Of a DNA stretch of 64,000 nt, positions 2,260 through 37,566 are shown one piece after another. Each line of letters begins with the position of its first letter. Within the stretch, counting starts at the first letter, position 1. The stretch comes from an uncultured Gammaproteobacteria bacterium (GTDB lineage Bacteria; Patescibacteriota; Microgenomatia; UBA12405; JAHJSD01). The position numbers and the translations under genes were made by a program. A model generated the notes under the pieces. That model was not told where the DNA came from, searched no databases, and saw only the letters and a program-made list of their open reading frames with translations. The stretch is taken from contig CAYRYE010000001.1 of assembly GCA_964428655.1 (NCBI GenBank), forward strand, positions 218,258 to 282,257, written 5' to 3'.

Positions 2260-2731
2260 AAGAGGCTCCGTTAAAAGGAGAACTATTCCACAAGATTTAG
2301 TTTTTAAGAGTGTTTTGGTGTCTCGATTAATCAATCAGGTGATGAAAAGCGGTAAGAAGACTATTGCCCGGAAACATGTTTATCGAGCTTTTGAGATAGT
2401 CAGAGAAAAAACAAAGCTGGAGCCGATTCTTGTTTTTAATAAAGCTGTTGATAATGTTAGACCAAGAGTGGAAGTTAGATCGAGAAGAGTAGGTGGAGCC
2501 GCTTATCAGGTGCCTAGGCCGGTTAGAGGATTAAGACAGGACTCGTTGGCTCTTCGCTGGATTATAGTTGCGGCTAGGGAGAGACCAAACAAGGATTATC
2601 ATACTTTTGCTGAAAAACTGGCCGCCGAACTCATTGATGCTTTTGAAGAAACCGGTGGCGCTTTTAATAAAAAACGAGAAGTTGAAAAAATAGCAGAAGC
2701 TAATAGGGCTTTTGCCCATCTTCGTTGGTAA
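2252..2731 (+). CDS. rpsG: 30S ribosomal protein S7
   Basis: MPRRG...KSGKK...AF start preceded by AAGGAGG; overlaps the rpsL stop by 8 nt; S7 family sequence. Confidence 0.9.
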
Positions 2732-2759
2732 TATTGGAACATTAAGTTAGCATTAAGAT

Positions 2760-4865
2760 ATGAATCAGCAGCGAATAGAAGTAACTAAAAATAGGGATGT
2801 TCCTATGGAGAAAATCAGGAACATTGGTGTTATTGCCCACATTGATGCTGGTAAGACAACTACCACTGAACGAATTTTGTTTTACACAGGCAGGACTTAT
2901 AAGATGGGCAATATTGACGATGGAACTACGGTTACTGATTGGATGGACCAAGAGAAGGAAAGAGGGATTACCATTGTTTCTGCGGCAGTGACTGCTTTTT
3001 GGAAGGAATATAGGTTCAATATCATCGATACTCCAGGCCATGTCGATTTTACTGCCGAAGTCGAAAGATCTTTGCGAGTTTTAGATGGAGCTATTATGGT
3101 TTTTGATGCTGAAGAAGGAGTTCAGGCTCAGTCGGAAACCGTTTGGCATCAAGCTGACAGGTATAAGGTGCCGAGATTGGTTTTTGCCAATAAAATGGAT
3201 AAATTAGGAGCAGATTTTGACAATACCATTGAAATGATTAAAAACAGGCTGGTGGCTAAGCCGGCAATTGTTGCTTATCCAGTAGGTAAGGAACAGGATT
3301 TTAAGGGAGTAATTTTGGTTTTGGAGAAAAAGATGTTGATTTGGGATAAAGGGGAAATGGGAACAGAATATTCAACAGTTAATGTTGCTGATGAGTATCA
3401 AGAGAAAATTGAAAAAATTAGAGCAAAGTTGATTGAAGATATCTGTGGCGAAGATGAGGGACTAATGGAGAAATTTTTGAATAACGAAGAACCAAGTTTG
3501 GAAGAGCTAAAGGCAGGGCTGAGGAAAGCAGTTATTGCCAATAAGTTGGTTCCCGTCTATTGCGGTAGCGCTCTCCGCAATAAAGGTGTTCAACCTCTTT
3601 TGGATGGAGTAATAGATTATCTTCCCTCTCCCTTGGATTTGCCTCCGGTTAAAGGTGTCAATCCTAAAACAGGAGAGGAAGAAAGAAGATCCCCTAAAAA
3701 AGAGGAGCCCTTTTCGGCCCTTCTGTTTAAGGTTCAAACTGATCCCCATGTGGGCAAGCTTTCCTATTTAAGAATTTATTCCGGTAAATTGAAAAGTGCT
3801 TCGACTGTTTATAATGCCTCTAAAAAAAGCTCTGAGAGGATAGGCAGACTATTATTAATGCATGCCAATAAAAGAGAAGGAATTGAGGAGGCATTCGCTG
3901 GAGAAATAGTTGCCGCTGTTGGTCTTAAAGAATCTGCAACTGGGGATACACTTTGTCAGCAGGGACAAACAATTAATTTTGAGTCGATAAGCTTTCCTGA
4001 TCCAGTTATCTCTTTGGCGATTGAACCGGAAACAAAATCAGATCAGGAAAAACTTAGTGCAGCTTTAAGTAAATTAGGCGAGGAAGACCCTACTTTTAAA
4101 ACCAAGATTGATCATGAGACGGGTCAGACAATTATCTCCGGGATGGGAGAACTTCATTTGGAAATTTTGGTTGAGAGAATGAAACGAGAGTTTAGCATTC
4201 ATGTTAATGTTGGCAAGCCCCAGATTGCTTATCGAGAGACTATTACTGAAGCAGAGTCTGGTGAGGGAAAATATATTCGACAAACTGGCGGTCGGGGTCA
4301 ATATGGCCATTGTTTTTTACGAATTGAGCCCCTAGAGAGGGGCGGCGGTTTTGAATTTGAATCTAAAATTAAAGGAGCAGCAATTCCGGCTAATTTTATT
4401 CCAGCAATAAAAAAGGGTGTTAGAGAGGCAATGGAGAAAGGTGTTGTTGCGGGTTATCCTTTGGTTGACATGAGGATAGTTGTTTATGATGGCAGCTATC
4501 ATGACGTTGACTCTTCTGATTTGGCTTTTAAGATTGCCGGCTCGATTGCCTTACAGGCGGCGGTTAAAAAAGCGGTTCCTGTCATTTTGGAACCAATTAT
4601 GAAGCTTGAGGTAAACGCACCTGAAGAATTTCTTGGTCAAGTTATTGGCGATCTTTCTTCAAGAAGGGCTCAGATCCTGGGTACGGAAGATAGGGGCCAA
4701 TTAAAGATAATTAGTTGCTTAATTCCTCTTGAGGCCGCTCGAGGCTATGCTACAATAATAAGGAGTCTAACTCAGGGTCGGGGCTCTTTCTACATGGAGC
4801 CTTCGCATTATCAAGGAGTGCCTAAAAATGTCCAGGAGGATATTATTGCAAAAAAGACAGCCTAA
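2760..4865 (+). CDS. fusA: Elongation factor G
   Basis: G-domain motifs AHIDAGKTT, DTPGHVDF, NKMD; 701 aa; follows rpsG. Confidence 0.95.
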   Translation: MNQQRIEVTKNRDVPMEKIRNIGVIAHIDAGKTTTTERILFYTGRTYKMGNIDDGTTVTDWMDQEKERGITIVSAAVTAFWKEYRFNIIDTPGHVDFTAEVERSLRVLDGAIMVFDAEEGVQAQSETVWHQADRYKVPRLVFANKMDKLGADFDNTIEMIKNRLVAKPAIVAYPVGKEQDFKGVILVLEKKMLIWDKGEMGTEYSTVNVADEYQEKIEKIRAKLIEDICGEDEGLMEKFLNNEEPSLEELKAGLRKAVIANKLVPVYCGSALRNKGVQPLLDGVIDYLPSPLDLPPVKGVNPKTGEEERRSPKKEEPFSALLFKVQTDPHVGKLSYLRIYSGKLKSASTVYNASKKSSERIGRLLLMHANKREGIEEAFAGEIVAAVGLKESATGDTLCQQGQTINFESISFPDPVISLAIEPETKSDQEKLSAALSKLGEEDPTFKTKIDHETGQTIISGMGELHLEILVERMKREFSIHVNVGKPQIAYRETITEAESGEGKYIRQTGGRGQYGHCFLRIEPLERGGGFEFESKIKGAAIPANFIPAIKKGVREAMEKGVVAGYPLVDMRIVVYDGSYHDVDSSDLAFKIAGSIALQAAVKKAVPVILEPIMKLEVNAPEEFLGQVIGDLSSRRAQILGTEDRGQLKIISCLIPLEAARGYATIIRSLTQGRGSFYMEPSHYQGVPKNVQEDIIAKKTA

Positions 4866-6501: not shown

Positions 6502-7149
6502 ATGAAAGGATTTTTGGTTAAGAAACTGGGCATGACGCATAAATTCCGTCAAGACGGAACTTTGGTGGCAGCTACTATTTGTCGGGCAGCTCCGTGCTTT
6601 GTTGTGGGCTTAGGAGCAAAAGATGAAAATGGTAATTTAGCAGTCCAATTAGCCGCTGGTAGAAAAAAACGGATTAATAAGCCCTTATCAGGTCAGATGG
6701 GAAAAGCAGGTGTAAACTTTGCTCCCGAAATTATCCGTGAGTTCAGGTTGAGCGCTAAAGACAAAATACCTAAGTTGGGGGGGGAAATTATGGTTTCAAA
6801 AGTTATTTCTCCCGGGATGTTTGTTGATGTGATTGGTGTCAGTAAAGGGCGGGGATTTGCTGGGGTTATTAAGCGCTGGGGATTTCATAGTCAACCGGCC
6901 ACTCATGGTCAGAGGGATAGGGAACGTTCTCCGGGTTCTATCGGGGCTCAAACCCCAGGAAGGGTGATTAAAGGCAAGAAAATGCCGGGTCACTTAGGCA
7001 ACCGGAGAAAAACTGTTCTTAATCTGGAAATTCTCTCGGTTGATAATAAAAAGGGAGAAATTCTAATTAAGGGGGCGGTGCCTGGATTTAAAGGTGGATG
7101 GTTGTTAGTTTTGGTGAAGAGAAAACTAAATGACAAAGAAAAATCTTAA
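6502..7149 (+). CDS. rplC: 50S ribosomal protein L3
   Basis: MKGFLVKKLGMT...L3 family; operon position. Confidence 0.92.
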   Translation: MKGFLVKKLGMTHKFRQDGTLVAATICRAAPCFVVGLGAKDENGNLAVQLAAGRKKRINKPLSGQMGKAGVNFAPEIIREFRLSAKDKIPKLGGEIMVSKVISPGMFVDVIGVSKGRGFAGVIKRWGFHSQPATHGQRDRERSPGSIGAQTPGRVIKGKKMPGHLGNRRKTVLNLEILSVDNKKGEILIKGAVPGFKGGWLLVLVKRKLNDKEKS

Positions 7150-7798
7150 ACTGCCGGTTCTGGATATATCGGGAAAAACTATCAAGGAGATGGTTTTGCC
7201 GGAGAAAATTTTTTCAGCTAAGCTGAATTTGCCTTTAATGGCTCAGGCAGTTAGGATTTATCTCCTGAATCAGAGGAAAGCTTTTGCCAAGGTTAAGACT
7301 CGAGGTGAGGTTCGTGGTTCTGGGAGGAAAATTTGGCGTCAAAAGGGAACTGGTCAAGCCAGACACGGTGATCGCTATGCTCCTATTTTTGTTGGTGGTG
7401 GCCGGGCTCACGGGCCTAAAGGTAATCAGGCCTACCGGTTAAAAATGAGTAAAAAAATGAAACGAGCCGCTTTATTTAGCGCTTTGACAGCGAAACTAAA
7501 TGATAAAAGGATACTTATTGTTGAAGGTTTAAAGGATATTCAACCAAAAACTAAAAATTCCCGAGAAATTTTGATTCAAATTTTTGGCAAGGAATTTGAC
7601 GAGACCAAAAAGCACCTCTTGGTTTTGCCGGAAAGATGGCCCAAAACAATAATGGGCTTCAGGAATCTTTCCTCAATTAATTTTTCCCTAGCCAGCAACC
7701 TCAACACTTACCAGGTTTTAAATAATGAGTGGCTGATACTTGTGCCGGATTCGATTAAAAAGATAGCTGAAAGAGTCAAGGAGAAAAAAAATGGATGA
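7130..7798 (+). CDS. rplD: 50S ribosomal protein L4
   Basis: L4 family sequence (GTGQARHG...GGGRAHGP); position between L3 and L23. Confidence 0.9.
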   Translation: MTKKNLKLPVLDISGKTIKEMVLPEKIFSAKLNLPLMAQAVRIYLLNQRKAFAKVKTRGEVRGSGRKIWRQKGTGQARHGDRYAPIFVGGGRAHGPKGNQAYRLKMSKKMKRAALFSALTAKLNDKRILIVEGLKDIQPKTKNSREILIQIFGKEFDETKKHLLVLPERWPKTIMGFRNLSSINFSLASNLNTYQVLNNEWLILVPDSIKKIAERVKEKKNG

Positions 7799-26890: not shown

Positions 26891-27892
26891 CTAAGACTTA
26901 CTAGGTCTCTCCTTATTTTTTTTACGTGACCTTTCAACAAAGTGCTCAACTTTGTCTTTCCAACCAGAAATATGGGGGACTCTATTAAACTCCTTTCCAT
27001 GTCTACCAGACAAGAGCTCTGTTCTGGTGCACTTACTCAGCTCTTGCCAATTACTATACATAATATAAATAGCATTTCCGTATTCAACGTTTTCAAAAAC
27101 TACTAGATCTTTTTCTAAAAGTGCACCAAAGTAACGTTGTATTCCGCTCATTCCGTAAACAAGCTTTTTGGGCCTAAGTTTTTTAAAAAAGTCGTATCTT
27201 TCTCCAGCAGTCTTTTTCTTTTCCTCTGGAACGGGCGATTTATATCCGGCAAAAATTCTATCCACAACTTCTTCTCGGGTCCCTGGTGGAAGAATTATCC
27301 AATCAACCTTTGTTGTTTGTAAGTAATCATTGAATGAGGCATTTGCTTTTTGAACCCCGCACATGCCAATATTTTCCTGAAGGATATTTAAACACTTTAA
27401 CAGATCTCTTTCAAAATTTGGATCTTTTCTGTCAAGCACGCTATCTAGCTCAAATGTAAGCACATACTGCTTTTTATTCTTACCTTTTTCCTTGGTATTA
27501 ATTTTGACACAAATATGTTCTGGTCCATAAAAATCTCGTGGATATTTCCTGTATGGAAGGTCGACACGATGGGACCCATTGTACCAATCTCCATAATTAG
27601 GACATTCAACCGAATTATAATGAGTTTCCTTGGGGAGGTCTTTACGAATAACTGCATATCCATCGATATTTCTCCTGCTGTATTTTCCACTAGTCACTGG
27701 AGGAACCGCAGGATCTTCAGGAACAATGAGCTCCTCGTTGCTTAAATGAATGCCAAGATGTTTAAGTTCTCCTTGTAGTAACTGTTGAGAAGAAACAATT
27801 TTAAGACATGCTGCTACAATATAACGTTCATTGAGTCTTTTTAATTGCACGTGTACAAGTTTTGGAATCTTCCGAATATTTTTTTTAGCCAT
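26891..27892 (-). CDS. Hypothetical protein (333 aa), translationally coupled to lexA
   Basis: Start overlaps the lexA stop by 8 nt; no recognisable motif. Confidence 0.6.
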   Translation of the reverse strand: MAKKNIRKIPKLVHVQLKRLNERYIVAACLKIVSSQQLLQGELKHLGIHLSNEELIVPEDPAVPPVTSGKYSRRNIDGYAVIRKDLPKETHYNSVECPNYGDWYNGSHRVDLPYRKYPRDFYGPEHICVKINTKEKGKNKKQYVLTFELDSVLDRKDPNFERDLLKCLNILQENIGMCGVQKANASFNDYLQTTKVDWIILPPGTREEVVDRIFAGYKSPVPEEKKKTAGERYDFFKKLRPKKLVYGMSGIQRYFGALLEKDLVVFENVEYGNAIYIMYSNWQELSKCTRTELLSGRHGKEFNRVPHISGWKDKVEHFVERSRKKNKERPSKS

Positions 27893-28523
27893 GCTGGTTT
27901 TGATAATTAATAGGTATTACGCTAACAACAACACCCTGAACTTTAAAGTCATTTGTTAAAATAATTGGTTTATTTTTTGGGTTGGATGACTTTGGCTTCA
28001 ATACAATTGCATTCCCGACGTGATTATATTCCTTAATAGTGGTCTCATCGTCTATTAGAGCAACCACTCGATCTTTATTTTTGGCCGTTGATTGCTGACG
28101 AATCAATACCAAATTACCATCGTTAATGCCAGCCAAATCCATAGAATCTCCGGATGCACGGAGAATAAAGTATTTCGACCCGGATTTAAGCATAGACGTA
28201 GTGACTGGAATATTACCTTCTATGTTTTCTTCTGATAGTAAAGGCATACCGCACGCGACCATTCCAACAAGCGGAATGTCTTGGGTTTGAGCATGAGTTA
28301 AATTTGACTGAGGATCTTTTATCAATTGATATTTTCCGGATTTTATCTTTTTTAACACATTCTTTTTTTCAAGTTTTTCTAATATATCTTGAGCTGATCT
28401 AGGAGATTTATAGCCAAGAGCCTTCATAAGCTGACGCACTGATGGACTCGATCCATTATGCACCAAAGAATTTCTAATATGCCTTATTGCTTGAAACTCT
28501 TTTTTGCTTAGTTGTTTTTCCAT
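27885..28523 (-). CDS. lexA: LexA repressor (wHTH plus S24 peptidase)
   Basis: N-terminal LexA wHTH (LGYKSPRSAQDILEKLEKKNVL); C-terminal GDSM catalytic Ser and downstream Lys. Confidence 0.88.
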   Translation of the reverse strand: MEKQLSKKEFQAIRHIRNSLVHNGSSPSVRQLMKALGYKSPRSAQDILEKLEKKNVLKKIKSGKYQLIKDPQSNLTHAQTQDIPLVGMVACGMPLLSEENIEGNIPVTTSMLKSGSKYFILRASGDSMDLAGINDGNLVLIRQQSTAKNKDRVVALIDDETTIKEYNHVGNAIVLKPKSSNPKNKPIILTNDFKVQGVVVSVIPINYQNQHG

Positions 28524-29985: not shown

Positions 29986-31458
29986 ATGATTGGTCAAATT
30001 TCACATCGGATATTTGGTTTGTTTGGAAAACAAAAGAAAAAAATTCCCCCACCCCCAGTAGTTAAAAAAAAGATTAAACCAACTTATAGACCAGAGCCAA
30101 AGTGGGAAAGAAAACATACTCCTAAGAAATCCTTTGAAGAGAGGAAAAATATTGAGCTGTTGAACGAGTTGAAGCGTCGGGAGGTAGAACTGAATAAGAG
30201 AGTTCAATCGCTTGAAGAAAAAGAACGTTACCTTCGCAACAAGGAATTTCGTTTAGATGGGGTAGAGACTCAGACTCAACAAAAACAAAGTAGGATTGAG
30301 GAATTGGAAAAAGAAATAAAAGCGAAGCTGGAGAAGATTTCTGGTTTAAAAGCCAGTGAGGCAAAAGAGCAAGTTATTAAAAATACTGAGAAGAAATTAA
30401 TTGCTTGGACTTCTAAAAAAATTGAGGAGGCAAAAGAAGAGATTAAATCGCGAGAAGAAGAATCAGCTAAAGAGATTTTAATTGATTCTATTAGACATGG
30501 AGTTGTTGATTGGGTAGCGGAATATACTGTTTCTACCATTAGACTTCCTGATGATGAAATCAAGGGTAGAATAATCGGTCGGGAAGGAAGGAATATTAGG
30601 TCTTTTGAAAGGGCTACCGGGGTTGAATTAGAGTTGGATGAAACTAATGACATTAGGCTTTCCTCATTTGATCCAGTGCGCCGTGAGATTGCCAAGATAG
30701 TTCTGCAGAAATTAATTCGGGACGGAAGAATCCAACCTTCAAGAATAGAAGAAGTGGTGGCTCAGACAAAGAAGCAAATGGATAAGATACTTTTAGAAGA
30801 AGGGAAAAAGATTTGTCAGGCAGTAGGCGTTTATCACTTGCCAATTGATTTAATTAAGTTAATTGGCAGATTTAAGTATCGTTTTTCTTATGGTCAGAAT
30901 TTAGCTCAGCACACGATTGAAGAGACAAAGATTGGGATTGCTTTAGCTCAGCAGTTAAAAGTTGATGTTAAGACGGTTCGATTAGGCTGCCTACTGCACG
31001 ATATTGGCAAGGTAATTACTGATGAAGAAGGAAGCCATGTTCAATTAGGAGTGAGTTTACTCAAGCGTCATCAAATACCGGAGAAGGTAATTGCTTGTGT
31101 GGCTGAACACCATGAAGATAAACCCTTTTCTTGTTTAGAGTCCACTGTTGTTTGGATTGCAGATGCCGCTTCCGGCTCCAGGCCTGGAGCTCGCTATGAA
31201 CCTCATGAGGAATATTTAAAGAGAATGGAGGGCATTGAGGAAGTAGTCAACTCTTTTGAAGGAGTTGACAGTGTGGCCGCTTATCAAGCGGGTAGAGAAG
31301 TCAGGGTCATTGTTAAGCCGGAAAAAGTTTCTGATGAAGAATTAAATGTCTTAGTTCAGAAAATAGCTGAAAAACTGGATGAAGAAACCAAATGGGCGGG
31401 ACGGATAAAAATAACTGCTATCAGGGAGAAGAGGGCAACGGCAGTAGTTTCCCGCTAG
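29986..31458 (+). CDS. rny: Ribonuclease Y (KH plus HD domains), Lys/Pro-rich N-terminus without an obvious TM helix
   Basis: KH GREGRNIR; HD LLHDIGK; long coiled-coil N-terminal region. Confidence 0.85.
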   Translation: MIGQISHRIFGLFGKQKKKIPPPPVVKKKIKPTYRPEPKWERKHTPKKSFEERKNIELLNELKRREVELNKRVQSLEEKERYLRNKEFRLDGVETQTQQKQSRIEELEKEIKAKLEKISGLKASEAKEQVIKNTEKKLIAWTSKKIEEAKEEIKSREEESAKEILIDSIRHGVVDWVAEYTVSTIRLPDDEIKGRIIGREGRNIRSFERATGVELELDETNDIRLSSFDPVRREIAKIVLQKLIRDGRIQPSRIEEVVAQTKKQMDKILLEEGKKICQAVGVYHLPIDLIKLIGRFKYRFSYGQNLAQHTIEETKIGIALAQQLKVDVKTVRLGCLLHDIGKVITDEEGSHVQLGVSLLKRHQIPEKVIACVAEHHEDKPFSCLESTVVWIADAASGSRPGARYEPHEEYLKRMEGIEEVVNSFEGVDSVAAYQAGREVRVIVKPEKVSDEELNVLVQKIAEKLDEETKWAGRIKITAIREKRATAVVSR

Positions 31459-31474
31459 TCAGGGAATCTCGAGA

Positions 31475-31503
31475 TTGACAAGTTTGGAAAACACCGGTAA
31501 AAT
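31475..31503 (+). promoter_or_regulatory. Near-consensus sigma70 promoter upstream of the HU gene (TTGACA-17-TAAAAT)
   Basis: Seen directly in the sequence; followed by AAGGAGGTG SD. Confidence 0.55.
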
Positions 31504-31548
31504 GCAATTAATTAACATTTACATTTCTGGAAAGGAGGTGGGTAAGTA

Positions 31549-31821
31549 ATGACAAAAAGGGAGCTAATAGAGATCTTGGCAAAGAAAGCAAAACTTACTA
31601 AAAGAGCAGCGAGAGAAGTAGTTGAAACTTTTCTAGGTGAGATTACCAAAGCTCTTGCCAGAGGTGAAAAAGTTAAGCTTTCTGGATTCGGAGTTTTATT
31701 TACTAAGCTTTTTAAACCTAAAGAGGTGTCGCCGATCGGTGGAGGACCCAAAAAGAAAATTGCTGCTCGAAGAATGCCGCGGTTTACTCCAGGAACGGCT
31801 TTGAAAAGAGCAGTAAAATAG
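31549..31821 (+). CDS. hup: DNA-binding protein HU
   Basis: HU/IHF fold signature (GFGVL..., arm R...P). Confidence 0.88.
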   Translation: MTKRELIEILAKKAKLTKRAAREVVETFLGEITKALARGEKVKLSGFGVLFTKLFKPKEVSPIGGGPKKKIAARRMPRFTPGTALKRAVK

Positions 31822-31889
31822 TTTTCTTAACTTTTACTTAAAAGGTTGTTAATCAGAGAGATGGATTTCTCTGATATGCATTATTAATA

Positions 31890-32873
31890 ATGGATATTAT
31901 TACTGCTTCTCATTTAAAAAAATATTATCGCGTTCATCAAAAGGAGCCTGGGTTGCTGGGAACGTTAAAATCACTAGTTAAGAGAAAATATGAAGAGGTT
32001 AAGGCTGTTGATGATGTTACTTTCAGAATTGCGGAAGGCGAATTAGTTGGTTTTATCGGTCCCAATGGAGCTGGTAAAACAACCACACTGAAGTGTCTCT
32101 CCGGTTTGCTTTATCCTAATAGCGGCTTCATTTCCGTATTAGGTTTTACTCCTTGGGATAGAAGGTCTAATTTTTTAAAACAGATCGCTTTTGTCATGGG
32201 GCAGAAAAACCAACTCTGGTGGGATCTGCCGCCGATGGAAACTTTTTTACTTAACAAAGAGATCTATGAAATCTCCGATTCTAAGTTTAAAAAAACACTG
32301 GGTGAATTAGTAGAGCTTTTGGAGGTTAAAGATGTTTTGAAAATTCAAACCAGGAAATTGTCCCTGGGGCAGAGGATGAAGTGTGAGTTAATTGCCGCCT
32401 TGCTTCATCAGCCCAAGGTTTTGTTTTTAGATGAACCGACAATTGGTTTGGATGTAGTGATGCAAAAAAAGATTCGCGATTTTATTAAAGAATACAATAG
32501 AAAGTGTGAGTCAACTATTATTCTTACTTCCCATTACATGGGCGATATTCAAGAATTGGCTAAAAGAGTAATCATTATTGATAAAGGAAAAATAGTTTTT
32601 GATGGCCAATTAGAAGAGATTACCAAAAAATATGCTGACCACAAGCTTGTCTCAGTTATTTTTAGTAAAAAAGTTGAAAGAAAGGATCTTAAAAAGATTG
32701 GTAAAATTAAAGCGTTCAGTTTTCCCAAGGCGTCATTGATGATAAAAAAAGGAGCTGTTTCTTTAGCGGCTTCAGAATTATTAAAAAAATTCCCGATTGA
32801 AGATTTAAATATTGAGGAGCCGCCAATAGAGGATATTATCCGTGAGTTATTTACTGGCAAAGATTATGCATGA
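31890..32873 (+). CDS. ABC transporter ATP-binding protein (ABC-2 type)
   Basis: Walker A GPNGAGKTT, signature LSLGQRMK, Walker B LFLDEPT. Confidence 0.9.
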   Translation: MDIITASHLKKYYRVHQKEPGLLGTLKSLVKRKYEEVKAVDDVTFRIAEGELVGFIGPNGAGKTTTLKCLSGLLYPNSGFISVLGFTPWDRRSNFLKQIAFVMGQKNQLWWDLPPMETFLLNKEIYEISDSKFKKTLGELVELLEVKDVLKIQTRKLSLGQRMKCELIAALLHQPKVLFLDEPTIGLDVVMQKKIRDFIKEYNRKCESTIILTSHYMGDIQELAKRVIIIDKGKIVFDGQLEEITKKYADHKLVSVIFSKKVERKDLKKIGKIKAFSFPKASLMIKKGAVSLAASELLKKFPIEDLNIEEPPIEDIIRELFTGKDYA

Positions 32874-33652
32874 AAAAATATTTTGCTTTTACAAAATTAA
32901 GTTTTCAAAGAGAACTATTTTATCGGGCTGACTTCTTTTTTTATTTCCTTCGCCAATCCCTTGTGTTTTTAGTTCAGATTTTATTGTTCGGAGTAATTTT
33001 TCGTGAAGAGACAATGATTGTCGGTTATAACTATTCTCAGTTTGTTCAGTATTTCTTAATTATTTATCTGGTTAATCTTATGATTGTGACTGGAGTGGAT
33101 AGTTATTTAGGGGAGATGATCAAAAATGGGGATTTGTCAAAACATTTGATGCGCCCGATCTCTTTTTTTTGGGCGATTTTTTTTCACCAGTGGGGCAAAC
33201 AGATTCATCGGTTGATTTATGTCGGTTTGGTAATTGTCCTGTTTGTTTTTTTAGGATCGGTAAAAATTAGTTTGTGGAAAATTACTCTTTTTGTTTTAAT
33301 TTTGGCGAACGCTACAATTCTATCTTTTCTTTACCGTTTTTTACTGGGGATTTCAGCTTTTTGGCTGGTTAACATTAGTTCAGTTTTGTGGCTTTTCCGT
33401 CAGTCAGCAAGCTTTTTAGGTGGTGGCCACCTGCCACTATCTTTTTTCCCTGAATGGGTAGGTAGACTAATTCGATCTTTGCCTTTTTATTTAACTCTTG
33501 GCTTTCCGGCCGAGTTTTTTCAGGATAAAATTTCATTGAAATTGGTTTTTTGGAATATTCTTCAGCAGTTTGGCTGGGTTCTTCTTTTATTTTGGTTAGT
33601 GGCCATATTATGGAGCAAGGGAGTGAAAGAATATGAGGCAATTGGCAACTGA
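32870..33652 (+). CDS. ABC-2 family permease (paralog type A)
   Basis: Six TM helices; homologous to the ORF at 34455. Confidence 0.75.
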   Translation: MKKYFAFTKLSFQRELFYRADFFFYFLRQSLVFLVQILLFGVIFREETMIVGYNYSQFVQYFLIIYLVNLMIVTGVDSYLGEMIKNGDLSKHLMRPISFFWAIFFHQWGKQIHRLIYVGLVIVLFVFLGSVKISLWKITLFVLILANATILSFLYRFLLGISAFWLVNISSVLWLFRQSASFLGGGHLPLSFFPEWVGRLIRSLPFYLTLGFPAEFFQDKISLKLVFWNILQQFGWVLLLFWLVAILWSKGVKEYEAIGN

Positions 33653-34454
33653 AAAACTAAAAGAGTGGTTGCACAGTTTTAGAGTTTATCTGGTTTGGTT
33701 GCAGATGAGGTGGCTGCGGCATTTGGAGTATCGCTTTAATGCAATTGCCAATTCTTTTGGTTCGCTTTTTTGGGTGGGAATAACATTGTTGACTTATAAT
33801 TTAATTTTTCAAAAAGTGGATTCTTTAGCGGGATGGAGTTGGAACGAGATGCTGGTTCTGTTTGGAGTTTACAATCTTTGGTGGGGTCTGATGGTGACCT
33901 TTTTTAACGGCGGCTTGCGGATTGGCGAACGGGTAAGAAGAGGAGGGATGGATAAAGTATTGCTTTGGCCGGGAAAAGCATTCTTTTATGTCTCAATGAA
34001 ATTTGAACCGGAATTGTTAGTTCACTTTTTAACCGGAGTGATAATATTTGTTATTTCTCTCAATCGAGTCCAAATTAATTTGTCACTTTTTAGTTTTATT
34101 TTGTTTTTTGTTCTTTTATTGAATAGTTTGGCTTTGATTTATTTTGTTTCTATTCTCTTTGGGTCAACAGCCTTTTGGTTTATTGAAAATAGGCAGTTAG
34201 CGGATTTTTTTTGGCTTTGGGAAACTTTGGCGAAATACCCGGGAGAATTCTTTTCCGGCAGCAAGGTGTTGCATTGGGCTGTTTTTACTATCTTGCCGGT
34301 GGTTTTCATTGCCGTGATTCCAACAGAAGTGGTTTTGGGCAAAATTAAATGGGGAACAATTGGAAGCGCGTTTTTAATTACTTTCATTTTTGCGATTTTG
34401 GCTAGGAAAGTTTGGAGAGTGGGTTTAAAAAGATATACTGGAGTATCAATTTAA
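33633..34454 (+). CDS. ABC-2 family permease (paralog type B)
   Basis: Six TM helices; homologous to the ORF at 35259. Confidence 0.75.
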   Translation: MRQLATEKLKEWLHSFRVYLVWLQMRWLRHLEYRFNAIANSFGSLFWVGITLLTYNLIFQKVDSLAGWSWNEMLVLFGVYNLWWGLMVTFFNGGLRIGERVRRGGMDKVLLWPGKAFFYVSMKFEPELLVHFLTGVIIFVISLNRVQINLSLFSFILFFVLLLNSLALIYFVSILFGSTAFWFIENRQLADFFWLWETLAKYPGEFFSGSKVLHWAVFTILPVVFIAVIPTEVVLGKIKWGTIGSAFLITFIFAILARKVWRVGLKRYTGVSI

Positions 34455-35255
34455 ATGAAAAAGTACTGGCTTATTTTCAAACTAACTTTAATGGAGTATT
34501 TTGTCTATCGGCTTAATTTTCTTTTGTGGCGGTTTCGGAGCGTAGTTTCTTTTTTGACCTTAGTGTTTTTTTGGCAGGCAATTTATGGAATCCGGCAGGA
34601 AGTTTTTGGTTATCAAAAATCTCAAATGCTGACTTATATTATTGGGATTACTTTTCTCCGAGGGATTGTTTTTGGCAGCAGAACAGCGGATTTAGCCGGA
34701 ATGATTAAAAGTGGCGATGTGGTTAATAAATTTTTAACTCGACCATGGAATGTGATTAAGGCTTGGTTTTTCCGAGATTTAGCAGCCAAATTTTTAGATA
34801 CGCTTTTTGTTTTTCTAGAATTAAGTTTAATACTCCGGTTTATTAGTCTGCCTTTCTATTTGCCGAAAGATTGGCGGTTCTTATTACTTTTTGGAATAAG
34901 TTGTTTGTTGTCAATAGTTCTTTACTTTTTTATTAACTTTTTCTTTTCAATCATTGCCTTTTGGATTGATAATATTTGGGCGCCGCGTTGGCTTTTTGGA
35001 GTGATTTTTTTGGAATTTATGTCAGGAGCCTTCTTCCCTTTGGATGTTTTACCAAAAACATTATTTAATTTTATTAAATTAACCCCATTTCCTTACTTGA
35101 TTTACTTCCCGATTAAGATTTACTTGGGCCAAGTTGATGTTTTAGGAACAATTAAGATATTAGGACTGATGTTTTTTTGGTTGTGTTTAATTTTGCCTTT
35201 AACTAATTTAGTTTGGAAAAAAGGGTTAAAAGCTTATTCTGCTTATGGCGGTTAG
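34455..35255 (+). CDS. ABC-2 family permease (type A')
   Basis: N-terminus (MKKYWLIFKLTLMEYFVYR) parallels the permease at 32870. Confidence 0.75.
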   Translation: MKKYWLIFKLTLMEYFVYRLNFLLWRFRSVVSFLTLVFFWQAIYGIRQEVFGYQKSQMLTYIIGITFLRGIVFGSRTADLAGMIKSGDVVNKFLTRPWNVIKAWFFRDLAAKFLDTLFVFLELSLILRFISLPFYLPKDWRFLLLFGISCLLSIVLYFFINFFFSIIAFWIDNIWAPRWLFGVIFLEFMSGAFFPLDVLPKTLFNFIKLTPFPYLIYFPIKIYLGQVDVLGTIKILGLMFFWLCLILPLTNLVWKKGLKAYSAYGG

Positions 35256-35258
35256 ACA

Positions 35259-36044
35259 ATGAAGAGAATAATTAAGATCTGGTTTTTAATGGCTAAAATG
35301 GTTGTTTTGCCTGATTTGGTTAATCCTGGAGCGTCAATATTATTTATTGTTGGCAAAGTGGTTAGATTTGGCTTCTTTTTTATTTTTTTATTCTCTGTTC
35401 TTTCCGGCGCCGGCAGTCTGGCCGGTTATTCGCGAGAGGAAGTGATTTTGTTTTTTTTGGTTTTCAACCTGATTGATATCACTGTTCAGTTTGTTTTTCG
35501 CGGCGTTTATCATTTTCGCCCGTTAGTGGTTTCCGGCAGCTATGATTTGGATTTGTTAAAGCCGTTGCCTTCTTTTTTACGGCCTCTTTTCGGTCATGTT
35601 GATATTCTCGATTTTGTTACTCTTGTGCCATTAGCAGGATTTACATTTTGGTTTACAGTTAAACATAATTTGGCAAGCGGGCCTGCTAATATGGGTGTCT
35701 TTATCGTTCTTTTTTTGGCGAGCTTGCTTTTAGGATTTGCTTTTCATCTTTTTGTTTGTTCAATTTGTATTTTAACTACCGAGATTGACCATTTAATTTG
35801 GATTTATCGAGATTTAACCGCTATGGCTAGATTTCCAACTGATATTTATCAAGGCTTGGTCAAATTTGTTTTAACTTTTGTTATTCCTGTTGTTTTATTG
35901 ATTACTTTTCCAGCTAAGGGGTTATTAGGATTGCTCTCTGCCAAAGCAATTTTGTCAGCTTTATTTATTGGTATTTTATTCGCCTATTTTTCCTTAAGGT
36001 TTTGGTATTTTAGTTTGCGCCGCTACACCAGCGCCAGCAGTTAA
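35259..36044 (+). CDS. ABC-2 family permease (type B')
   Basis: Polytopic membrane protein paralogous to the permease at 33633. Confidence 0.75.
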   Translation: MKRIIKIWFLMAKMVVLPDLVNPGASILFIVGKVVRFGFFFIFLFSVLSGAGSLAGYSREEVILFFLVFNLIDITVQFVFRGVYHFRPLVVSGSYDLDLLKPLPSFLRPLFGHVDILDFVTLVPLAGFTFWFTVKHNLASGPANMGVFIVLFLASLLLGFAFHLFVCSICILTTEIDHLIWIYRDLTAMARFPTDIYQGLVKFVLTFVIPVVLLITFPAKGLLGLLSAKAILSALFIGILFAYFSLRFWYFSLRRYTSASS

Positions 36045-36067
36045 TTTGTTATACTTTTTTTAAATCA

Positions 36068-36652
36068 ATGAAGAAGGACAAGTTTTTTTTGTTTATCATT
36101 GTTTTCCTATTTTTCCTGGAGAATATTCTGTACTTTCATTATTTTTTCTTGAATCGGAAAAAAGGAGTGGTTCTTTCTTCATTAACTTATTCTGATAATT
36201 GTAGTTTGGATTGTCAGGAAATGATGGATGAAAAGATCAATAGAGCTTTGGCAAGAATTTCCGGGAGTTATTCTGGGGGGCCCAAATCAACTTCTATTAG
36301 TTATATTCCTTTGGGTGATGGCGGTTTAACTATTTCTCATGATTGGGTTCTTATTGAGGGTTCACAGTTTGTTTTTGATCTTAATGATTATCCTTCTGGA
36401 ACAAGGGTTTATTGGGAGGGAAATTTAAAAGCTCGGCACAGTAATAGCCGCTGTTATGCCAGAATTTATGATAAAGATAATTTTAGAGAAGTAGATTATT
36501 CCCGCCAGTCTACTGATAAAACCAGTTTTGAATCTTTGAAAAGTAATTCTTTAAGAATTTGGGCTGGAAACAATCACTATCAATTAGAAATTAAGTCATT
36601 AAATGGTATTCCTTGCTACTTAGAAACCCCAAGGCTTATTGTCAAGTATTGA
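36068..36652 (+). CDS. Hypothetical protein with an N-terminal signal-anchor (exported), downstream of the ABC-2 cluster
   Basis: Hydrophobic N-terminus FLFIIVFLFFL; no recognisable family. Confidence 0.55.
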   Translation: MKKDKFFLFIIVFLFFLENILYFHYFFLNRKKGVVLSSLTYSDNCSLDCQEMMDEKINRALARISGSYSGGPKSTSISYIPLGDGGLTISHDWVLIEGSQFVFDLNDYPSGTRVYWEGNLKARHSNSRCYARIYDKDNFREVDYSRQSTDKTSFESLKSNSLRIWAGNNHYQLEIKSLNGIPCYLETPRLIVKY

Positions 36653-36717
36653 TTATTGCTATAATAGAAAGATTAGAGAGATTTACTCTCCTGCTCCTTT
36701 TGTTTTTACTCTAAAAT

Positions 36718-37053
36718 ATGGAATCTGATGAGGTTAACCGAGTTTGTGCCGCCTGGTGGCAAGAAGAGTATGAAGCGACTAGGGAAGAGGTGCTTGCGGA
36801 AGACCCTGTCGCTAGAGAGTGCACTTATGTGACTTTCGTAAGTCGTTCTAATGGTCGTGGTCGATCGCGAAGGAGACCTAGGAGCGTTGAATTAATAGGT
36901 TATGGTGGACGCCATTATTCAATTAGAAAAGATGGGCCTCATAGCCCACTTGATGTGATTGCTGACGAAGTATTGGGCGAATCTGTTCCTTCTAATGAAA
37001 GGTATGATAAGTTTTTGCAACGTGTTCGAAAAGTGCCGAGGCGACGGCGTTAA
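36718..37053 (+). CDS. Arg-rich hypothetical ORF (111 aa) in a GC-enriched patch; may instead be a structured RNA
   Basis: No SD; extended -10 TGCTATAAT at about 36659; GC content visibly above the neighbours. Confidence 0.3.
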   Translation: MESDEVNRVCAAWWQEEYEATREEVLAEDPVARECTYVTFVSRSNGRGRSRRRPRSVELIGYGGRHYSIRKDGPHSPLDVIADEVLGESVPSNERYDKFLQRVRKVPRRRR

Positions 37054-37068
37054 AGTGTCATAAGCTTC

Positions 37069-37566
37069 ATGGGTTATAATGAATTAATGATTATTTTAGG
37101 AATAGACCCTGGTTTGGCTTCTACCGGCTGGGCGATTTTGAAGAAAGGGAAAGAACCAAGACTACTTGGTTATGGCTGTATTAAAACCGGTAAAGAAGAA
37201 AATTTCAGTGAAAGACTTTGTTTTATTTTTCATGAGGTGAAGAAATTAATTTTAAAAGCAAAGCCCCAGGCAATGGCAATAGAAGAAATATTTTTTGCCA
37301 AGAATATAAAAACGGCCATTAAAATAGCCCAGGTAATGGGTGTAATTAAAGTGGCTTGCAAAGAATCCGGCATGCCTGTTTTTGAATATACGCCTTTGAA
37401 TGTAAAAATGACCATTACGGGCTACGGCAGAGCAGATAAAAATCAAGTTGAAATTATGGTTTCCAAAATACTTAACTTGAAAAAAAAAGTTAAACCAAGC
37501 CATGCCGCTGATGCAGTGGCAGTTTCATTGACTCATCTTTTTACAAATTCCCAACTAAAGGTATAA
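37069..37566 (+). CDS. ruvC: Holliday junction resolvase RuvC (likely true start at 37087, MIILGIDPG)
   Basis: ILGIDPGL...; catalytic D/E/D/D pattern. Confidence 0.9.
   Translation: MGYNELMIILGIDPGLASTGWAILKKGKEPRLLGYGCIKTGKEENFSERLCFIFHEVKKLILKAKPQAMAIEEIFFAKNIKTAIKIAQVMGVIKVACKESGMPVFEYTPLNVKMTITGYGRADKNQVEIMVSKILNLKKKVKPSHAADAVAVSLTHLFTNSQLKV

Follow-up and report, generated by a model that had tools for sequence, protein, structure and literature searches.

An operon in the genome of an uncultured Microgenomatia bacterium places a single ATP-binding cassette (ABC) ATPase gene ahead of two pairs of membrane permease genes, and the ATPase probably drives two heterodimeric type V exporters that work independently of each other, members of the DUF990/EVE family built from deeply diverged pairs. 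The operon is found at 31890–36652 of the 64,000-nucleotide stretch of contig CAYRYE010000001.1 (assembly GCA_964428655.1, 218,258–282,257) that was analyzed, referred to here as the window. The exporter family is known but poorly studied, and the operon represents an uncommon variant of it; the finding solves no long-standing problem and is of modest importance.

Six consecutive open reading frames (ORFs) on the + strand, N-A-B-A’-B’-X, fill this region. The Joint Genome Institute gene calls on the source contig, a metagenomic contig of 548 kb, comprise the same six genes, and all six lie at the positions given in a first-pass annotation made from the DNA alone. The N gene (31890–32873, +) encodes an ABC ATPase of 327 amino acids, recognized by its PF00005 match and catalytic motifs. 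It is followed by A (32870–33652, +; 260 amino acids), an A-type permease of a rare, lineage-restricted pair; B (33633–34454, +; 273 amino acids), the B-type cognate partner of A; A’ (34455–35255, +; 266 amino acids), the A-type permease of a widely conserved Microgenomates core pair; and B’ (35259–36044, +; 261 amino acids), the B-type cognate partner of A’. These four were assigned to the PF06182 family by Pfam. The last gene, X (36068–36652, +), encodes an N-terminally anchored protein of 194 amino acids. The stop codon of N and the start codon of A share an ATGA, A and B overlap by 20 nt, the TAA of B is followed without a gap by the ATG of A’, and 3 nt separate A’ from B’. The five transporter genes look translationally coupled because these junctions overlap or abut; the gap between B’ and X is 23 nt.

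Each of the four permeases scores above the gathering cut-off of 22 bits for PF06182 (ABC2_membrane_6, the former DUF990): A with 95.3 bits (E = 6e-27), B with 134.5 bits (7e-39), A’ with 62.1 bits (9e-17), and B’ with 112.3 bits (4e-32). As the first-pass annotation had proposed from the resemblance of the first permease to the third and of the second to the fourth, pairwise BLASTP resolves them into two paralogous pairs. A and A’ are 27.4% identical over 266 amino acids (E = 6e-20) and B and B’ 26.6% identical over 218 (5e-11), while the cross pairs are far weaker (4.5e-7 for A with B, 0.007 for A with B’, 0.026 for A’ with B’, and 0.99 for B with A’). The A and A’ families match each other in a profile–profile comparison with a probability of 99.9% (E = 5e-35), and the division into A-type and B-type sequences was recovered in 99 of 100 bootstraps of an 83-sequence permease tree. 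Each complete pair thus has two non-identical membrane subunits, one A-type and one B-type, beside one separate ABC ATPase. A heterodimeric transmembrane domain (TMD) fits this arrangement, since both types are present in every complete pair, as they are in the canonical three-gene systems.

Those canonical systems have one permease pair, as the first-pass annotation had also said. In family 3.A.1.141 (EVE/DUF990) of the transporter classification database TCDB, EvrABC of Synechocystis PCC 6803 and its homologue BC0513-0515 of B. cereus each consist of one ATPase and two membrane proteins (PMC5417439). EvrABC, a drug-type exporter of ethyl viologen, is the only characterized member of the family. 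The three-gene natA-COG3694-COG4587 operons, of unknown function, are found downstream of ppGpp riboswitches in some Firmicutes (PMC6003355). A Paenibacillus locus (L083) has the same N-A-B layout, and most Microgenomates loci also have a single pair. The window operon shares with EvrABC and its TCDB family the PF06182 permeases, the two different membrane subunits, the separate ATPase and the presumed direction of transport, which is export in both. It differs, in a comparison made by description only, in that its one ATPase gene is followed by two pairs, deeply diverged from each other, rather than by one. The natA-COG3694-COG4587 operons belong to the same three-component transporter family, but they carry one pair behind a riboswitch leader, whereas the window operon has two pairs and no Rfam match. 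In Paenibacillus the N-A-B operon is directly downstream of a family-2 glycosyltransferase gene and a radical S-adenosylmethionine gene (L083, 2073–6604), neighbors that may hint at the substrate class in that organism.

The first-pass annotation attributed the two pairs to tandem duplication. As a recent, local event this is rejected, because A scores higher against many other sequences than against A’ and no A+A’ clade is found. A scores 62.8 bits against A’ of the window and 86–162 bits against at least 148 other cluster representatives, one of which, among the ten nearest non-orthologous relatives of A, is from Paenibacillus. In the 83-sequence tree an exclusive A+A’ clade appeared in none of 100 bootstraps, and the A clade and the A’ clade had 79% and 89% support. 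The two lineages also differ in breadth. A has about 15 orthologue clusters at 49% identity or more, after which identity drops to 29% or less, while the homologues of A’ number more than 670 clusters. Searched exhaustively with HMMER, A had 4,153 homologues at E ≤ 1e-3, only four of them at E ≤ 1e-30, and a metagenome scan with an alignment of A gave at least five confirmed loci. The extra pairs that some other Microgenomates have upstream of N represent two more lineages, distinct from both A and A’. With separate permease lineages and no A+A’ clade, A and A’ are therefore best described as deep paralogues, and the pairs as being of different descent and brought together beside one ATPase gene. 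The deep branches of the tree are poorly settled, and a very ancient duplication may still lie behind the A/A’ split.

The history of the two pairs was followed in related genomes, which include Candidatus Shapirobacteria, Roizmanbacteria, Woesebacteria and other Microgenomates; these named relatives place the source bacterium in the Microgenomates group of the candidate phyla radiation (CPR). With an A’ profile, 63 loci were fetched from one-genome-per-species contigs, more were added through homologues of A and X, and each ORF was classed by comparison with the six proteins of the operon. A conserved recA-rny-hup block precedes the transporter in about 40 related loci, and in Shapirobacteria-like genomes it always does so. 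In the window, the last gene of this block, identified by gene calls and synteny, is hup (31549–31821, +), encoding an HU protein of 90 amino acids. The commonest layout is N-A’-B’, found in about 24 loci (including L004, L005, L007 and L008), and Roizman/Woese-type genomes have A’-B’-N (about 11–14 loci). The four-permease layout N-A-B-A’-B’ is found in the window and in L006, L009, L015, L079, L080 and L082, and in the partial locus L077. Two loci (L074 and L081), and probably a third (L078), have N-A-B alone at the same position after recA-rny-hup, with 4.8 kb of DNA downstream of it in L074 and 3.5 kb in L081. No remnants of A’ or B’ were detected by tblastn in these three loci, and none of A or B in L004, L007 and L008, which have N-A’-B’. 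Across all three states – both pairs, A’-B’ only, and A-B only – N is 70–83% identical to the N of the window; in the A-B-only genomes it is kept directly upstream of A-B and is 75–76% identical. In the roughly 60 loci covered, A and B are without exception either both there or both missing, and so are A’ and B’.

N-A’-B’ is thus the common Microgenomates core, and A-B is confined to one ATPase subclade, without exception at the same recA-rny-hup-N position. In a tree of 53 ATPase sequences (100 bootstraps), all A-B-bearing loci fell in one clade (61%). Within it, one subclade (97%) consisted of an A-B-only group (L074, L081 and the truncated locus L075; 97%) and a both-pairs group (the window, L015, L079, L080 and L082; 73%). 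In its sister group (97%, six taxa), the both-pairs loci L006 and L009 interleave with the A’-B’-only loci L004, L007 and L008. This pattern is most simply read as a single gain of A-B and later, reciprocal losses, because the A-B-only group is sister to a both-pairs group and the A’-B’-only loci are interleaved with both-pairs loci.

The ATPase matches PF00005 (E = 4e-25) and its motifs are intact: Walker A (GPNGAGKT), signature (LSLGQ), Walker B with the catalytic glutamate (VLFLDE), and the H-loop. Its best NCBIfam match is drrA (TIGR01188), at 205.5 bits against a cut-off of 312.45, so that N is related to drrA (DrrA/NatA-like) without being a curated member. By sequence N is closest to the nucleotide-binding domains (NBDs) of ABCA-type transporters and to the full-length Thermotoga ATPase 4YER, to which its C-terminal extension also aligns. 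The operon had been annotated as having a single ATPase, and a tblastn search (E ≤ 1e-3) found no further ABC ATPase in the whole window.

For the permease family, no solved structure was found by sequence, the sole matches being at chance level (E = 0.16). The AlphaFold2 model of A, with a predicted local distance difference test score of 89.5 and a predicted template modeling score of 0.86, begins with an N-terminal amphipathic helix (residues 2–17) and transmembrane (TM) helices TM1 and TM2, and continues with a short cytoplasmic helical segment (76–93), TM3 to TM5, two short helices (195–217) and a long TM6. The amphipathic interface helix, the six TMs, the coupling helix between TM2 and TM3, and the re-entrant helices between TM5 and TM6 are those of a type V ABC exporter, and A is predicted to have this fold. 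Every structural neighbor of A is a type V transporter with two TMDs, and the best matches are glycopolymer exporters. Type V exporters of solved structure include Wzm-Wzt (6M96), KpsMT (8TSH), TarGH (6JBH) and the ABCG and ABCA families, at a sequence identity of only 7–14%. The TMDs of Wzm, KpsM and TarG are homodimeric, whereas those of the window would be heterodimeric A/B pairs. In ABC transporters an NBD dimer provides two docking sites for TMDs. By analogy with the solved relatives and the single-pair relatives, the functional unit would be two NBDs and two TMDs.

The segments predicted to face the cytoplasm – the N-terminal helix, the TM2–TM3 loop and the C-terminal tail, with limits in B and B’ set by analogy to A – resemble each other more closely between paralogues than does the remainder of the protein, with identities of 0.40 versus 0.23 for A/A’ and 0.28 versus 0.19 for B/B’ (p of about 0.03 for each in a circular-shift test).

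In the arrangement proposed here, a homodimeric ATPase (N2) would power two exporters, N2·A·B and N2·A’·B’. A’-B’ would be the ancestral Microgenomates core pair, and A-B a second, deeply diverged pair that a single Shapirobacteria-like subclade acquired once, inserted between N and A’. The two complexes would each work alone, so descendants could lose either pair, and they would presumably export different substrates from the cytoplasm or the membrane. Each pair is most likely its own transporter on a shared ATPase because close relatives keep just one pair or the other. The sharing of N is suggested by three features: there is a single N gene, an orthologous N is kept with either pair alone, and the N-facing segments are the most conserved between the paralogues. 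Of the two explanations offered in the first-pass annotation, two alternative translocons sharing one ATPase is the one that fits the occurrence of each pair alone, with an orthologous ATPase, in close relatives.

Several points weigh against the proposal, whose support comes from genomic comparison (gene content, paralogy, synteny, and the reciprocal presence and absence of the pairs) and from the predicted fold of A. The window covers 64 kb of the 548 kb source contig, and the relatives were examined for about 7–10 kb on each side, so a second ATPase or a ‘missing’ pair could be elsewhere. The trees are neighbor-joining trees of short, divergent membrane proteins, with deep branches that lack resolution. 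The similarity of the cytoplasm-facing segments is probably a family-wide feature, and hence no proof of a shared partner. That the two complexes handle distinct substrates is pure conjecture, and the substrate class is ambiguous because EvrABC is of drug type and the best structural matches are glycopolymer exporters.

The subunits might also mix. In this case A·B’ and A’·B would form in addition to the cognate pairs and one ATPase would drive up to four translocons. In favor of this, one operon supplies all four subunits by co-translation, the paralogues are most similar in the segments that face the ATPase, and alternative heterodimers are found among type V half-transporters, White of Drosophila pairing with either Brown or Scarlet. 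Such mixing nevertheless seems unlikely. Cognate pairing is favored because A+B and A’+B’ are always gained and lost jointly, and the membrane regions, where the TMDs would meet, are only about 19–23% identical between paralogues.

It is similarly improbable that the two pairs are redundant isoforms with the same job, caught in a transient four-permease state before one is lost. Close relatives have repeatedly lost one pair or the other and no distinguishing substrate feature was identified, both of which would agree with redundancy. However, the intact four-permease state persists in the window and in the six other complete loci listed above, whose orthologues are only 50–70% identical, which indicates that purifying selection has long acted on both pairs. 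Identity between the two pairs is also only 27%, a divergence beyond that expected of interchangeable isoforms.

A third explanation, that A-B is served by another ATPase encoded elsewhere and is adjacent to N by position only, is very doubtful. The contig extends to at least 548 kb, of which 64 kb was covered, and orphan PF06182 pairs without an adjacent ATPase do exist (L084), but the ATGA overlap joins A directly to N, the A-B-only genomes keep N immediately upstream at 75–76% identity, and genomes in the CPR are very small. Least credible of all is the other explanation in the first-pass annotation, a hetero-tetrameric channel with A, B, A’ and B’ in one four-TMD complex on an ATPase dimer: the four genes look translationally coupled, and their operon has just one ATPase gene, but close relatives with an orthologous ATPase have A-B alone or A’-B’ alone, most Microgenomates have A’-B’ alone, the type V fold works with two TMDs, as in every structural neighbor of A, and an NBD dimer has two TMD docking sites.

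The proposal that one ATPase serves two separate exporters has a parallel among importers. The multitask ATPases MsmK and MsiK each energize, as one NBD protein, several TMD sets of type I importers (PMC7658222, PMC4519317). The principle of one NBD protein for several distinct TMD sets is the same, but those systems are importers with substrate-binding proteins, their ATPase gene usually lies apart from the permease operons, and experiments have demonstrated the sharing; the window would have a type V exporter system whose TMD sets belong to the ATPase operon, with the sharing deduced from comparison. Group II energy-coupling factor (ECF) transporters, also importers, have a shared EcfAA’T module and exchangeable S components. 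They too combine one energizing module with exchangeable membrane specificity components, though their fold and mechanism are wholly different. In the literature searched, ATPase sharing was found described for type I importers and not for the DUF990/EVE exporter family, and no account was found in which a lone ATPase gene of the type V (ABC-2) exporter class comes before two or three distinct heterodimeric TMD pairs.

Some related genomes have more pairs. Six loci (L014, L020, L022 and L024–L026) have an extra one or two PF06182 pairs between hup and N, and one of them (L014, 3781–9617) has three permease pairs with one ATPase gene. A broader and more tentative reading is that, across Microgenomates in general, the single ATPase gene after recA-rny-hup may be a hub, with deeply diverged TMD heterodimer cassettes – one to three pairs, on either side of N – added and removed in a modular, shared-ATPase form of type V export. 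If so, minimal genomes could broaden what they export while keeping to one ATPase gene, and the locus would be an exporter counterpart of the multitask importer ATPases and group II ECF transporters, which mixed A/B’ pairing may extend. If the shared-ATPase model is right, it would show the ultra-small CPR genomes sparing ATPase genes while diversifying export. The genomes with both pairs, A-B only, and A’-B’ only are a natural set in which to look for specificity determinants in the uncharacterized DUF990/PF06182 family.

Two of the related loci have unusual gene arrangements. In L082, a four-permease locus, a gene for a 248-amino-acid tetratricopeptide-repeat protein sits between A’ and B’ (6596–7342). 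In L084, the PF06182 pair with no ATPase nearby (2293–4163) has its B-type gene split into two or three short ORFs, and is apparently a decaying orphan pair. Many of the GTDB metagenome-assembled genome records with recA-rny-hup-N-A’-B’ (L004–L031 and others) bear the title ‘uncultured Gammaproteobacteria’, ‘Bathyarchaeia archaeon’ or ‘Clostridia bacterium’. These titles clash with the CPR-type synteny and look unreliable, and they were not used for taxonomy.

The last gene of the operon, X, was described in the first-pass annotation as an exported accessory protein. A 194-amino-acid protein with an N-terminal anchor does follow the permeases, but a role as a dedicated accessory subunit is rejected on the basis of synteny. 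X has a single hydrophobic segment at its N-terminus (residues 6–24, within a modeled helix of residues 2–31), then a CxxxC motif that is nearly invariant, a variable linker and, at residues 77–193, a conserved domain of about 115 amino acids in which C129 and C183 are invariant. The model of this C-terminal domain is a β-jelly-roll resembling the carbohydrate-binding modules (CBMs) CBM6 and CBM36, and X is predicted to be an anchored, CBM-like cell-surface protein. Its homologues form 49 clusters, all unannotated and all in Patescibacteria. Only four of about 50 informative loci have X after the transporter (the window, L015, L023 and L082), and in L082 it is two genes further downstream, past a reverse-strand gene. 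X is no conserved transporter component, because in all four other genomes checked its homologues lie in unrelated neighborhoods: after enolase, after cysS (twice), and beside TspO (P0156, P0188, P0196 and P0199). In the genome of L032 and L073, X and the transporter share a contig but are about 80 kb apart. Homologues in Pacebacteria-like and other genomes are found right after cysS and adjoin a divergent cluster encoding a von Willebrand factor A-domain protein and N_methyl (type IV pilin-like) proteins (L069, 7001–11078; L071, 4050–7368), which hints at a cell-surface role for the family apart from the transporter. In the window X is probably co-transcribed as the last gene of the operon. 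A glycan-exporter-like fold predicted beside a CBM-like neighbor is suggestive, though synteny lends no support to a functional link.

Candidate regulatory signals were read from the sequence on either side of the transporter genes. A sigma-70-like promoter (TTGACA-17-TAAAAT, 31475–31503, +) matches the consensus at 11 of 12 positions upstream of hup, and is a possible start of a hup-N-A-B-A’-B’-X transcript. The 68-nt spacer between hup and N contains a perfect 8-bp hairpin, ATCAGAGA-N8-TCTCTGAT (31852–31875, +), ending 14 nt ahead of the N start codon, which could be a partial terminator, an attenuator or a protein-binding site. After X, a weak hairpin followed by a T-rich run (36675–36707, +) is a tentative candidate for the operon end; the scan placed this hairpin on the − strand only. 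In promoter and terminator scans the site counts in the region were not clearly above those in shuffled sequences. A riboswitch or other known RNA leader, an idea that came from the ppGpp riboswitches associated with related operons (PMC6003355), was rejected, as there was no Rfam match at E ≤ 1 within 31000–37300.

Between X and ruvC is an ORF of 111 amino acids (36718–37053, +) with Arg-rich stretches (RSRRRPRS and VPRRRR) and a GC content of 0.47, compared with 0.33–0.41 in all neighboring genes. It had no significant Pfam or NCBIfam match, and tblastn matched it in none of the related loci other than copies of this contig. The ORF could be an orphan gene specific to the lineage, or else a GC-rich island that does not code for protein. 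The surroundings of the operon as a whole are rich in DNA repair genes: lexA, recA, rny and hup precede the transporter, and ruvC, ruvA and ruvB are found downstream. The lexA-like repressor gene is divergent and upstream of recA, and beyond it are genes for a Vsr endonuclease, an R.HinP1I-like restriction enzyme and a C5 DNA methylase (window 27885–28523, −, and L001, 219–3438).

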